From NCBI GenBank assembly GCA_038087875.1, contig CM075990.1:15192001-15256000 (forward strand): a stretch of DNA of 64,000 bases, given 5' to 3'. Positions 28,795-34,544 of this stretch are shown here, one piece after another (positions within the stretch are counted from its first letter, which is position 1; each line of letters opens with the position of its first letter). This DNA is from Malacoraja senta (taxonomy: Eukaryota). The position numbers and the translations under genes were made by a program. The notes below the pieces were generated by a model that made no database searches, was not told where the DNA came from, and saw only the letters and a list, made by a program, of their open reading frames with translations.

Positions 28795-29037
28795 CGTGTA
28801 GGAAGGAACTGCAGATGCTGGTTTACACCAAAGATAGACACAAAGTGCTGGAGTAACTCAATGGGTCAGGCATCATCTCTGGCGAAAAGGAATAGGTGAT
28901 GTTTTGGGTCGAGACCCTTCTTCAGAATGAGAGTCAGGGGAGAGTGTCTGAAGAATGGTCTCAACCCAAAACGCCACCTATTCCTTTGCTCCAGAGATGC
29001 TGCCTGACCCGCTGAGTTACTCCAGCATTTTGTGTCT
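28795..29037. repeat. Inverted pair of Penelope terminal repeats (palindrome)
   Basis: Minus copy about 28795-28925 and plus copy 28948-29037; both hammerhead cores are decayed. Confidence 0.8.
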
Positions 29038-30968
29038 TAAAGGAAAGTTAAGTTTGATTTGAGTATTTAGCAATGTGTTTGCTTATGGTGAAGGTGGAAG
29101 TTCCAACTATTTTGACAAAGTGGTTTTGTACAATAGAACAGCTGTATGCTTGTAAACGTTCAGCAACTGTGTCCTATTGCTTGTGACTGCAAGAGGGACA
29201 GTGATGCCATATGGAAAGAGCAGTGCTTTAAGATCAAGCTTTCATTACAGATACTGCAGTGTTCCCTTAGTCCAGCACCTCCCTATCATTGCGTTCCATT
29301 GCTGTGGCTTTTCCAAGTTGCTTAGATGTCAATAATTAGCTAGATACTCTCTTCACTGATACTACCTATGGAGAAGTGTTAACCTGTTGAACTTCTGCAG
29401 TCTTCAAGGGAATGGACAGAGCCACCTGTAAATTTATCCTATATTTGGATTTTTAGGATCTAAAGGGAAATTCATGGTCCCAAATGTGGTGGTGTAAGGC
29501 TCGAAAACTGTTATTAGTTTATTATTGTTTGCATGCACCCAGTCAAACCGTACATACAATCAAAAAAGGAAATGCAGAATATAGTGATTCAGCTACAGAG
29601 AAAGTGCAGATTATAAAATAAAGTTACAAGGTTCACAGTGAGGTAGGTTGGGAGATCAGGACCACACCCTTTGCTTATGAGAGATCCATTGAGATGTTTG
29701 CTAATAGTGGGGAGGAATTTGGTTCCTGTATCTGGGGCGTGAATGGTCCTTTTTTGGGTTTGGCTGCTTCCCTGAAGCAACTTGATGCGCAGAGTTGAGC
29801 AGCTGATGGGACAAATAGGACTGACTTAAATAGGGTATTTTGGTTGACATGGACGAGTTGGGTCAAAGGGCCAGCTCCAATGCTGCTCAATTGACTCTGT
29901 GACTCCAGGATGAGTTGGTAATGATGACGCTTTACTTCTCCTCTTGGCTCTGCACTCTGACATCTCCCTTGCTTTCCACTGTACGGTTGACCCAAGGTTT
30001 GGTTTTCCTGAAGGAGACCTGAATGAGAGGCATTGGCTGCCTGCGAGGAAACCTTGGATGGAGAGGGGAATACAAGCAAACATTCTGGCCCCTTATTTGC
30101 AAATGTGAAGCACTGATTCTGGTGAGAATACAGGGCATTTCTCATAACTTGCGAATGAGGCAATCACTTGCAATGCAACATGTTGGAGCCTTGAATATCT
30201 TCGAAGTGCTCAAGAGAGTTACCACGGTAAAATTTTTGGACACTGACTCAGGATTGCAATGAAGTGCTGACCTTGGTAATATATGCTGTCATAGGAAATG
30301 GTGTACTTATCAGAATGTTTATTCCTTATCCCGGGCTTGGTCTTTGTTCAATCATCCCTGAATCATTTAGTTCGTTTACAGCCATTCTCTGCAATATTGA
30401 TTGCGGAAGAAAAATGTTCAAACAGTATGACTTGTGCTTCCATGTCCAATTCAAAATGTGGTTAGACAGGATGCAGAGGAGACCTGAATCACAAACTCAC
30501 ACTATCTCACGGCAGTAGTTCTCAATTATCTCTGTATTTTGAATAAGAGTTTTGCCTGTCTATGTGACAAGCTATCATCTAACAGAGGAGCCACTGTATC
30601 CATAACAACGTAAATACTAATTCAGATTAGTAGCATTTGTGATTCTTTGAACCCAAGTCTGCCTGGTGTAGAAAAAGAACAGCAGTCAAACTTAATCTGC
30701 TAATGGACTTTTAATTAATTAACCAGAGATTATAACATCAGTTAATACACAAAGGATATGGAGAACTTCAGGTTCCTGAGATAGACACAACAGCTGGAGT
30801 AACTCAGCGGGTCAGACAGTATCTCTGGAGAAAAGGAATAGGTGACGTTTCTCCAGAGATGCTGTCTGTCCTATTGAGTTACTCCAGCATTTTGTGTCTA
30901 TCTTCGGTTTAAACCAGCATCTGCAGTTCCTTCCTACACATTCAAGTCCCTGAGTGTAAATATCATCA

Positions 30969-31305
30969 TCATCATCATCGGCGGTCACTCGAAACGAGTA
31001 TGACTGTCCTCTCCTCTCCATAGGGTCGTCTACTTGTAGGTCTGCAGATGTCTGTAGAGGCCGATCCGCGATCCACACACCTTGGTGCAACGTGGGCAAT
31101 GGAGACTGACGGTGGTTGGTAGTCGTCGAGCCCCCTTCTCTCTCTCCTTACGGTGCTGTCGCTTTGTCTCTGCGACACGGCGTAGTTCCATTTCGTGACG
31201 TGCAGCTCCTTCCTGCACGGATTTCCTCCAGCAGCGCCTGTCCAATGCAATGTGCTCCCAGTTGCTTGATGTGATGTGGAATTTCTTCAGACCGTTCTTG
31301 ATGTT
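30969..31305 (-). mobile_element. RTE-clade LINE 3' end with 15-bp TSD
   Basis: NIKNGLKKFHITSSNWEHIALDRRCWRKSVQEG...CPRCTKVCGSRIGLYRHLQTYK*, then a (GAT)n tail. TSD GTGTAAATATCATCA at 30954-30968 and 31306-31320. Confidence 0.9.
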
Positions 31306-31641
31306 GTGTAAATATCATCAACCTGCATTTAAAATGCAGTTAAATTCATTTAAAATATCACCCAGCTGCGGTTACACTACTCAACACTGTACCTCGGTGA
31401 CTGCCAATCACACCCCCCCCCCCCCCCGGACACTCCTCCCACCAGGATTTATTAGATTTATTTATTTACTGCTCATATTTATGTCGCTCTTCTAGGGAGA
31501 TGCTAACTGCATTTCGTTGTCTCTGTACTGTACACTGCACAATGACAATAAAGTTGAATCTGAATCTGAATCTGAATCTGAATTTAAAACAGTACTTCAA
31601 ACATTCAATTAAGACAGACAAGAGATCGATTCAATCAAACT

Positions 31642-31695
31642 GGGGTGGGAGATTGCAACCTTCACGTAGACCGCCCTGGTTCGACGAATGCAATC
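31642..31695 (+). ncRNA. Minimal HDV-like (CPEB3-type) ribozyme fold
   Basis: P1 GGGGTGG/CCGCCCT with G1.U wobble, P2 GATTGCA/TGCAATC (perfect 7 bp), L3 TTCACGT, J4/2 CGAA. P3 ACC/AGA is mismatched in this copy. No P4. Confidence 0.75.
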
Positions 31696-31781
31696 AACCC
31701 GGTGTGCACAATCAAATAAGATCAAATAGAACAAGTTGGCCTACAACTTTAGGCTGTGCACGCCATACGCAAGAAGAAGAA
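31642..31781 (+). mobile_element. 140-bp non-autonomous retroelement (Ingi/Vingi- or RTE-like derivative) with ribozyme head and (AAG)n tail
   Basis: TSD GATTCAATYAAACT at 31628-31641 and 31782-31795. The 3' end reads GCCATACGC(AAG)4. Confidence 0.8.
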
Positions 31782-32284
31782 GATTCAATTAAACTTTTTA
31801 AAAAAATTATTATCTACCATACAAGTTGATGGTTTTCCTTACATCGATGATGATCAGTTTTGTTGGTGGTTAGCGTTGTGGTAATGCAATAGGTCCAATT
31901 GTTGAATGTTATGGTGTGTAGTTGACCAAACTGATTTATTTACAAGTCATAAAGGACCTATAAGTAAAGTTACACGAATGTTTGCAGTTTTTGCAACTCA
32001 AGGTCACCAATCAACCATATTGATGCAGCTTAAGAGACACTTTACCATCCCCTCCATAAAAATACAAGCAGTATTGTATTATTGTTTCCTATGACTTCAG
32101 TCATTTACCAGCGTTCCATTTTACCTCTACTTTGAAGAATATTAAATGTCACCCTTGATTTTGTGTTGGAGGGGGCGTCAAACAAATTTAATCTGCATGT
32201 AATCTCTGCTTTTAGATCAATATTAAATCACATTAATAATTGGAGAAAAATGGAGCAGGTTTTGGAGAAATAAAAACAATATTT

Positions 32285-32593
32285 AGAAACATAGAAACAT
32301 AGAAAATAGGTGCAGGAGGAGGCCATTCGTCCCTTCGAGCCAGCACCACCAATCATTGTGATCATGGCTGATTGTCCCCAATCAATAACCCGTGCCTGCC
32401 TTCTCCCCATATCTCTTGATTCCGCTAGCCCCTAGAGCTCTATCTAACTCTCTCTTAAATCCATCCAGTGATTTGGCCTCCACTGCCCTCTGTGGCAGGG
32501 AATTCCACAAATTCACAACTCTCTGGGTGAAAACGTTTTTTTCTCACCTCAGTCCTAAATGGCCTCCCCTTTATTCTAAGACTGTTGCCCCTG
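32285..32593 (-). mobile_element. CR1/HER1-type LINE 3' end
   Basis: Near-identical to 3975-4270 and 47076-47363; (TTTCTATG)n tail. Confidence 0.9.
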
Positions 32594-32724
32594 GTTTAAT
32601 TCATGTTTTCATAGTTTGAGATCTGGCGCACGTAGCATTAGTACCCACATGGTGTTAGAGCAAAGTTTAGTTGCACATGAGAGTATGGGGAGTATCGTAA
32701 GAAGCTGCAAATGCAGCCGTACAG

Positions 32725-32903
32725 GGTACCAGTACTGTGAGTTATTGTGGGGAATGTTTTGTCGTCTACCTTTACTGATTGCATTCTATGGTTCAGGAAT
32801 TGAGGATTCAATTACAGAGGAGGTAATTGAGTCCTTGGTCCAGGAGTTTGCAAATGAATTTGGTTGGAATTTGGGTGATGAAGACGGAGCTAACGACAAA
32901 TGA
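32725..32903 (-). mobile_element. Old Rex1/Babar RT fragment
   Basis: Minus strand resembles the SS.F...IPTK.I.KLLD.GL..SL.NWIL.FL RT segment, with frameshifts. Confidence 0.55.
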
Positions 32904-33321
32904 AATTTTGACAAATATTAAATTAAATATATTAATTTAATAAATTGCAATGGAATTGGTCAGGGTGGTATTTGTATCTGTACATTAGAATAGTTCATTG
33001 CTCCCTGCATTGATGGTATTCCTACCCTCTCCTTCCCTGTTTCCTGGCTCCCTGTCCTCCAAAACATTGTTATTCAGTCAGACCACTGACTGATGGACTT
33101 AAGATATGTCCAGAAAGAAATCGGCTTGGTTGTTCCCAACACACCAATTCCTCCAATATATTTTGGGCTGTCAACTATCCTGTCTTAAAGCCAAATGGAT
33201 GGGTGACATTTTGAAATATGTTGCCCTTGCTGAGAAATAATGAAAATTTTAAGTTCATTTCCCTGCATGTTACTTTTGGTTATTATCAATAATAAATCAA
33301 ATTCTCAACATAGACACAGAA

Positions 33322-34386
33322 ATATAGACATAGATTTCAAACTATATTTTTAGACCCTTTAGAAGAAGCAATGAATATTAAGGCTGATTCACAAAAACTA
33401 ATATCATATTTTTATAATAGTATATTAAATAGAGAATTACCCTCAACAGAGGCACTAAGAGAAGATTGGGAACATGAACTAATGATAAAGATCCCGAAAG
33501 ATAGATGGGAAAAGTATCTGATGAACACACATAATTGTTCCATTAATGCAAGACATAATTTAATTCAATTTAAATTATTACATAGACTATATTATTCAAA
33601 AACGAGGTTGAATAAATTCTACCCAAATGTCTCTCCCAGATGCGATAAATGTTTGTTTCAAAATGCCAATATAACACATTCATTTGTAGGATGTACAAAG
33701 TTGAATAAATTTTGGAGCGATATATTTGATATATTTACAAAGCTCTTCAAGTCAAGAATAGAACCTAATACGGAATGGATTATATTTGGAATAATAGTAG
33801 AAGATATCAATTTAAACAAAGATCAAAAAGTATTCTTTAATTATGGGTTAATAATTGGAAAGAAATTGATACTTAAATTTTGGAAAAATACAGCTATACC
33901 AACTATTAAAATGTGGATTAGGAATATGACGGACATAGCACACCTTGAAGAAATGAGACTCCGCCTAATAGATAAATATGACCAATTCTTAAGGAGTTGG
34001 TCCCCTTTCATCGACTTTTTGGTATCATGTGATGCAGCAGTACAGTAAAGATTACTGATTTCAGGTCAGGTCGTGGATAGATTTACATCTCCGAACAAAA
34101 ATTTGAAAATTTCTTTTTTAAGGGTCTTTTTCTACTATTTCTACTTTCTATTTTTTCTTTTCTCATATACACACTTCACGTTTTTCTATTTTCTACTATC
34201 TATTTTTCCTCTTTTTCTTCTCTCTATTTTTTTTTTATTTTTTACTTCCTTTTCAAAAACATAAAACTAGAGGTTGTACATAGAATGTATTACGTTATGA
34301 CATAGTTGGCACCTAAAATTAGGTACCACTGTATTGTTTTGGATTGTATTAACTTCTAATAAAATAAAAAAATTTAAAAAATAAAA
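33322..34386 (+). mobile_element. 5'-truncated L1-clade LINE with 28-bp TSD
   Basis: Open ORF2 C-terminus, T-rich 3' UTR, AATAAA and A-rich tail. TSD AAATCAAATTCTCAACATAGACACAGAA at 33294-33321 and 34387-34414. Confidence 0.92.
33323..34048 (+). pseudogene. L1 ORF2 C-terminal remnant (zinc-binding region), not a host gene
   Basis: The 225-aa track ORF stays open back to the truncation point. Contains IQFKLLHRLYYSKTRL...CDKC...HSFVGC..L..FW. Confidence 0.88.
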
Positions 34387-34544
34387 AAATCAAATTCTCA
34401 ACATAGACACAGAAGTTGGCACAAATTTTCTAGCATAGATGAACCGTAAGTCATTCCAAAGCTGAAATATGGGTTCTCTACCAACCAGGGCTGTGTGCGT
34501 TAGCAAGGAGTGGCCAGGTGTCTGTCAAAAGCAATCCCATATTA

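Follow-up and report, generated by a model that had tools for sequence, protein, structure and literature searches.

The closest described relatives of the element presented here are NARTc, RIME and SIDER1-2 of trypanosomatids, derivatives of L1Tc and ingi that are short, have their 5' end in common with an Ingi-group LINE and carry an HDV-like fold at nucleotide 1, with a 3-bp P3, a P1.1 of 1-2 bp and target-site duplications (TSDs) of about 7-11 nt; the fold of L1Tc measures 77 nt with its P4, and the tail is poly(A) (PMC3185411, PMC4035085). The R2 SIDEs of Drosophila are also short and internally deleted, and depend on no more than a 5' HDV-like ribozyme plus a 3' end that the partner protein, of RLE type, binds; they are specific for 28S rDNA and measure about 500 bp (PMC3414825). 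Activity has been shown for the ribozymes of NARTc, the SIDERs and the R2 SIDEs, those of L1Tc/NARTc and of the R2 SIDEs cleaving in vitro (PMC3185411, PMC4035085, PMC3414825). Bipartite elements made of LINE 5' and 3' ends, with no RNA-gene head, are known among RTE derivatives (Bov-A, RTESINE1/2, WALLSI3), and internal deletion has joined Vingi 5' and 3' ends in the non-autonomous Vingi-1_EE derivatives of hedgehog and in the Vingi-2_Acar portions of SINE2-1_Acar; six clades in which 5' ribozymes occur (R1, R2, R4, RTE, Ingi as well as LOA) appear in the same review, whose list does not name Vingi (PMC5786205). HDV-like ribozymes occur in some metazoan LINEs and SINEs (PMC6765202). Vingi elements, with a single ORF of ~993 aa and no RNase H (PMC3708506, PMC13708176), have been reported in hedgehogs and reptiles (PMC5753468), and the part of PMC3747384 that deals with sharks and rays lists only tRNA SINEs.

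The element at 31642-31781 of the stretch analysed here (the window, 64 kb in length, in which it is present once) resembles these systems in its small size, in the 5' end shared with a LINE, in an HDV-like fold that starts at its first base and has a 3-bp P3 and one P1.1 pair, and in its bipartite structure; like the R2 SIDEs, it would need nothing beyond this 5' ribozyme and a 3' end to which the protein of its partner binds. It differs from the trypanosomatid elements in its animal host with a genome of 1.94 Gb, its length of 140 bp, its (AAG)n tail, its partner without RNase H and a fold of 54 nt with no real P4. Unlike the R2 SIDEs it is dispersed, APE-type and about a quarter the size, and unlike the bipartite RTE derivatives it has a partner that, judged by architecture and relatives, is not RTE. 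From the SINE2-1_Acar and Vingi-1_EE set it is distinguished by the absence of a tRNA head and by the fold carried by four Vingi-like families. Ribozyme activity, shown for NARTc, the SIDERs and the R2 SIDEs, is putative here. Kojima et al. 2011 is said to be the source study for the Vingi-1_EE and Vingi-2_Acar/SINE2-1_Acar derivatives. Ribozyme-headed bipartite LINE derivatives are already known, and the 140-bp element is an unusually stripped-down example; our literature search found no paper on this family or on Vingi ribozymes, an earlier description being possible in Repbase or Dfam, which were outside its scope.

Between TSDs read directly from the plus strand, a left one of 14 bp (31628-31641) and a right one with one mismatch (31782-31795), the copy in the window is laid out as the original prediction had described it. 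The segments of the HDV-like fold (54 nt, 31642-31695), every one at the coordinates then given, are P1 (31642-48), a J1/2 of 2 nt (31649-50), P2 (31651-57), the 5' strand of P3 (31658-60), L3 (31661-67), P3' (31668-70), P1' (31671-77), a 7-nt linker (31678-84) that provides the P1.1 G and then a 6-nt remnant in the place of P4, J4/2 with the sequence CGAA (31685-88, putative catalytic C at 31685) and P2' (31689-95). To this we add a U5.G32 wobble in P1 and a single P1.1 pair that the first G of the linker can make with C22. The base G1 (31642) is the predicted cleavage site and, from the TSD ends, the observed 5' end of the family. The segment contributed by the partner LINE's 5' end covers 31642-31722, as indicated by the match of nt 1-78 to LINE copies, and contains the 5' arm of a candidate end-joining helix (31701-31710). 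It is followed by the deletion junction (31723-31735), made of an 8-nt local duplication and 5 nt absent from both LINE ends, and by the LINE 3'-end segment (31736-31781) with the last codons, a stop at 31750-52, a short 3' UTR and the tail. The 3' arm of the helix (31755-31764), assigned like the 5' arm by folding and helix comparison, precedes the terminal motif and (AAG)n tail (31765-31781); direct reading of this end gave GCCATACGC followed by AAG repeats, as claimed, with the final G belonging to the TSD.

The break of P3 in this copy (ACC facing AGA) was likewise borne out, and the copy fails the pairing descriptor for P3 and, with it, the nested double-pseudoknot order of HDV. Since aligned copies of the family overwhelmingly have GGT at P3', the AGA is best read as two substitutions, and the copy in the window is probably inactive as a consequence. 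An Rfam scan of 29000-34500, in which this P3-broken copy was the only one covered, did not back the ribozyme call, giving neither a ribozyme match up to E 10 nor an RNA-gene match. A plain MFE fold of 55 nt was no better than shuffles (z 0.95), which is expected of a pseudoknot and hence uninformative. Other repeats lie close by: a long imperfect inverted repeat at 30779-30903 of the window, with weak matches to miRNA families and ~129 matching places in the fetched loci, and another abundant repeat near 32300-32550.

The element belongs to a large family. A DNA search of its own 1.94-Gb genome returned 1,115 candidates, of which the 40 scored were 96-100% identical, and exact matching found 2,837 places for a 25-mer of the 3' end and 2,570 for a 26-mer of the 5' end with P3 restored (reversed control 0 in both cases). 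From the first 73 Mb of contig 1, where 28 places were common to 100 and 86 listed matches, we roughly estimate a family of ~8,700-9,200 copies, probably an underestimate. Part of the element sequence is also present in sequencing runs from nine organisms. The position of the 5' ends was examined in the first 90 of 100 listed matches to the 3' pattern, a sample that avoids selection for full length and includes five apparent segmental duplicates. As the original prediction had anticipated, 5' ends pile up at G1: 82 of the 90 copies start at position 1-3 (68 at position 1, 11 at 2 and 3 at 3) and one at position 5, while the remaining seven start further in, six being 5'-truncated and one (L249) having its G1 upstream of a deletion inside the element. 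TSDs were callable in 71 copies, and in 63 of these they end within 1 nt of G1 (39 at G1, 20 one base into the element, 4 one base short of it; the other 8 end elsewhere); TSD lengths in the family are 8-17 bp, with a mode of 11-12. The family has thus amplified on its own, its copies bearing a tail and TSDs.

Mean divergence from the majority sequence is 5.4% (range 0.9-13.8%), and in that sequence P3 is restored to ACC/GGT, the bases G, G and T of P3' being found in 72/76, 75/77 and 74/77 aligned copies. The C at the catalytic position of J4/2 (C44) is kept in 78 of 83 aligned copies; J4/2 reads CGAA in most copies; the parent LINE has CTAA there, as do older copies. All core features (P1, P2, P3, L3/P1.1 and the J4/2 C and A) are intact in only 35 of the 83. 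No Pol III A or B box was found on either strand in a search with consensus boxes, in agreement with what had been claimed. Some variation around the main form was also seen. The parent LINE has undergone further, independent internal deletions, with breakpoints elsewhere, at L053/L054, L245 and L203 (about 135, 115 and 400 bp), and the dominant 140-bp form has gained a 6-bp hairpin at nt 92-108 that is missing from the LINE end. One copy (L064, ~750-1500) contains a non-coding insertion of ~750 bp with terminal inverted repeats of ~13 bp and a 2-3-bp duplication, probably a MITE.

A long element sharing both ends, which the original prediction had proposed to search for, was found as a LINE of ~3.1 kb. 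It was reached through an APE N-terminal motif, which occurs at 58 places in several families; 30 were fetched, and three of these have the 5' end of the element upstream of their ORF. Nucleotides 1-78 match L187, L185, L151, L195 and L196 at 83-88%, and for nt 95/100-140 the match to LINE copies is 88-100%, so that both ends are common with one LINE (for example L187, 466-3266) and the middle is deleted. By these alignments the 140-bp element is shown to be an internal-deletion derivative of a ~3.1-kb Vingi-like LINE, of which it keeps the first ~80 and last ~45 nt. A Cys/His-rich stretch precedes the end of the LINE's ORF, which lies nine bases upstream of the terminal motif. Pfam detected APE and RT in its translation and no RNase H in four translated pieces of L185 or two of L187, a Nimb-like control being positive. 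Its relatives are mostly APE+RT proteins of ~1,000 aa on ~3.2-kb contigs, with no RNase H family among the 120 listed, and the closest of them (P0001) is an intact protein of 1,019 aa with 72% identity. Taken from broken copies and P0001, a single ~1,000-aa ORF with APE and RT, without RNase H, in ~3 kb is the architecture of Vingi. We write "Vingi-like" because the assignment of the clade is by architecture and relatives: no sequence named Vingi was among the relatives listed or the PDB sequence matches, and a PDB sequence search returned only L1, R2 and group II intron RTs. The earlier proposal of an Ingi/Vingi- or RTE-type partner is narrowed to a Vingi-like LINE; RTE is disfavoured by architecture and relatives and Ingi by the lack of RNase H. 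Similarly, the description as SINE-sized stands as to the short length without Pol III boxes, and the element is better named an internally deleted LINE derivative than a SINE.

Several other routes to the partner were tried and rejected. Two junction-exclusion patterns gave 9 and 4 matches, only to mutated, truncated or interrupted copies. The top PF14529 matches led to a young Nimb-like family with neither end in common; this two-ORF Nimb/I-group-like LINE (L105-L111, L116) encodes 401 aa and 1,277 aa (APE, RT, RNase H) and has many near-identical, intact-looking copies. A metagenome scan yielded five loci, two being chance matches in a coding-like context and three a repeat with a tRNA-like head (L102-L104, on metagenome contigs) that ends in the same 21-nt tail as the element, which suggests that SINEs are mobilised by related LINEs elsewhere. 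The idea that the 21-codon open frame of older copies is an in-frame fusion of the N- and C-termini was half right: its ATG and last codons are LINE-derived, and its middle is the junction duplication.

Partner LINE copies are 86-97% identical to each other, about as old as the short element, and an intact ORF was not found in any copy examined (in part under a stricter initial screen). Exact matches to the LINE-type 5' continuation number 112, and a second short deletion variant (L053, L245) is among them. In several parent copies an ATG across J4/2 and P2' (window 31688-31690) is in frame with the APE ORF (L187 461-781, L152 4920-5369, L185 570-1463), with a second in-frame ATG ~19 codons later in some, so that translation could start inside the ribozyme. 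Among 19 partner loci mapped, selected for their 5' region, 10 have the 5' piece inverted relative to the downstream piece, as in twin priming (L153, L186, L189, L192, L194, L195, L197, L199, L200, L201). In nine of the ten the inverted piece extends at least as far as position ~11 and is fused by microhomology to other element sequence, with no flank visible. Since the query that recovered these copies started near position 67, their reach to the extreme 5' end points to a template that ended at or near G1; such ends cannot separate cleavage from initiation. Eight of the ten loci have also lost most of the middle (about 2.1-2.7 kb) between the inverted 5' extreme and a short 3' piece, a count for which there is no baseline, and these missing middles may reflect RNA ends that are held close.

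HDV-like ribozymes share a G1.U wobble, a 7-bp P1, a 3-bp P3, an L3 with U20 and G25, and a catalytic C and an A in J4/2. A pairing descriptor was run upstream of the 30 motif loci and relaxed once, its stricter first version having missed families C and D; it matched 10 of the 30, in four Vingi-like families, namely the partner (A) and B, C and D. In a background of 5 Mb generated by a Markov model of the window, the strict HDV descriptor had 0 matches and relaxed versions 6 and 12. The nested double-pseudoknot order is found in the majority sequence and in families A-D, all four of which show a 7-bp P1 opening with G.U, a J1/2 of 2 nt, a 7-bp P2, a 3-bp P3, a 7-nt L3 with the U20 and G25 positions, one P1.1 pair (C-G, or U-A in family C) and a J4/2 that starts with C and keeps the catalytic C and A positions. 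With one copy taken per family, 72 of 72 cells are paired and 13 of 18 pairs are altered on both sides; pairing in families B-D is partly given by construction, as their folds were found with a pairing descriptor, unlike the position of the fold at the first base of each family. The TSD adjoins G1 in full-length copies of families B and C and ends 5 nt before it in the one D copy checked. The P4 region of families B-D measures 25-41 nt and that of family A 6 nt, and the 140-bp element has no P4 helix, only a 6-nt remnant. In minimal HDV-like ribozymes, P4 is dispensable. Read from the sequence, the linker could fold a small UUCG hairpin, tying up G37 and the catalytic C. Altogether, the first 54 nt are predicted to fold as an HDV-like ribozyme, a prediction supported by covariation.

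The genome holds at least five other Vingi-like families: B (L264, L265), C (L269, L270), D (L274, L278), E (L281, L282) and L123. Families B, C and D have the fold at their start and (AAG)n at their end, and the fold was not found in the family E and L123 copies examined. Two loci (C8:934716 and C4:35486717), which position or identity level points to family B, have no stops over ~950-980 aa.

The retained ends of the short element may also be joined by a helix, nt 60-69 pairing with nt 114-123. It has one mismatch in the parent and in older copies (7) and is a perfect 10 bp in the expanded subfamily (38, plus 18 forms with CpG decay). Comparing the 20 nt after P2' with the 25 nt before the tail, wobble pairs allowed, the longest helix is 8, 9, 8 and 9 bp in families A-D (shuffle p 0.015, 0.002, 0.015 and 0.036); non-cognate 5'/3' pairs reach 3-8 bp, and 0, 0, 1 and 0 of 104 body windows reach that length. 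With Watson-Crick pairs only, families C and D are not significant (p 0.09 and 0.08). This longest-helix test was chosen after a weaker test of duplex energy in 30/40-nt windows, which gave p values of 0.01-0.02 with family B and with the short element and of 0.12-0.50 with A, C and D, and in which the 5' segment of family B paired slightly better with the 3' end of family C than with its own. The predicted end-joining helix of 8-10 bp is thus a lead with moderate support, and our literature search found no published account of it.

Expression was followed in one stranded poly(A) run from a related organism, about 6% of which was read (four runs were examined overall); among the indexed runs, no RNA run containing the element was listed. 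On the element lay 821 reads in both orientations, 92% of which continue into unlike sequence, and 296 reads, strands pooled, have loose sequence upstream of G1 (before positions 1500/1501). No pile-up of molecule starts was seen at G1 or elsewhere in this library, whose type is poorly suited to 5'-OH ends. As the reads mostly run through, the RNA of that sample appears to be mostly an uncut passenger in host transcripts. This result lowers the cleavage model and does not refute it, given the unsuitable library and the fact that most copies are mutated.

We propose that the element, having no Pol III boxes, is transcribed inside host transcripts, as seen in the RNA of the related organism, and that this would be its productive route; that an HDV-like ribozyme would then cut just 5' of G1 and give a defined 5' end; that the 8-10-bp helix, whose pairing is seen in four families, may bring the retained 5' and 3' parts together; and that the APE-RT protein of the LINE would bind the 3' end and initiate target-primed reverse transcription at the (AAG)n tail, which would leave TSDs of 8-17 bp. 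We infer this last step from the shared ends, the TSDs and the known mechanism of Ingi/Vingi. With a template so short and a 5' end so sharp, most copies would be full length, and the window copy would have lost its P3 later. From the internal deletion of the LINE to reverse transcription by its protein, we consider this whole account likely. The same origin and partner could be combined with an internal promoter for Pol II that lies within the first ~80 nt, as with Pr77 of L1Tc, and determines the 5' end, the fold then being secondary and serving protection, protein binding or translation initiation. Pr77 is promoter and ribozyme at once (PMC3185411, PMC4035085), and initiation and cleavage are not distinguished by 5' ends piled up at G1; RNA without starts at G1 fits neither the promoter nor the cleavage reading well. 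A promoter would have no need of compensatory pairing, and the catalytic-position C, the G1.U wobble, the L3 G.U positions and the P1.1 pair are kept in four families with otherwise replaced helices, so that we judge it unlikely that a promoter sets the 5' end, the two roles not being exclusive.

It might also be that the ribozyme is active in the parent LINE and slow or dead in the P4-less short version, whose full length would come from the short template and from a stop of the RT at the stable pseudoknot. P4 is down to 6 nt against the 25-41 nt of families B-D, the RNA reads are mostly read-through, and decay of the CpG at the catalytic C, which is skewed in the expected direction (4 TG versus 13 CA, p 0.049), is indistinguishable from that of a neighbouring linker CpG (4 versus 15, p 0.019; 5 sites tested). 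The parent LINE has the same 6-nt linker, however, so that the short element lost nothing relative to it; moreover, an RT would stall on the 3' side of the pseudoknot and not after copying through to G1, and the TSD lies within 1 nt of G1 in 63 of 71 copies. Loss of activity in the short form is for these reasons very unlikely. A classical Pol III SINE, or mobilisation by an RTE-, CR1- or Nimb-type LINE, would fit the SINE-like size and copy number, and the tail shared by the repeat with a tRNA-like head at three metagenome loci; against it, A and B boxes are absent, both ends map to one Vingi-like LINE, which already contradicts it, and the young Nimb-like family shares neither end, leaving it with hardly any probability.

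To conclude, our results would carry the range of short deleted elements processed by ribozymes beyond trypanosomes and the rDNA of flies, to a family with thousands of copies dispersed in a large animal genome, and they place HDV-like folds on Vingi-like LINEs, which are missing from the clade list of the review cited above (PMC5786205). They also provide a natural candidate ribozyme of 54 nt, for which thousands of naturally occurring variants exist. More tentatively, as a possibility somewhat short of probable, Vingi-like RNAs might be closed end to end, the 5' HDV-like ribozyme setting the start and the 8-10-bp helix joining the post-ribozyme to the pre-tail segment, with ribozyme, helix and tail as the whole cis signal. 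If true, this would explain why the clade repeatedly produces bipartite dwarfs, why inverted copies so often include the 5' extreme, and how an RNA of 140 nt, headed by an HDV-like ribozyme that is among the smallest in nature, outnumbers its parent about a hundredfold. Vingi-1 from Anolis is used as an RNA-only gene-insertion platform, with donors that include both Vingi UTRs (PMC13708176); for the question of which cis elements such donors need, a minimal template from nature and a 5'-3' helix would be directly relevant. Finally, host pre-mRNAs could also be cut, by the thousands of core-intact copies located in introns.
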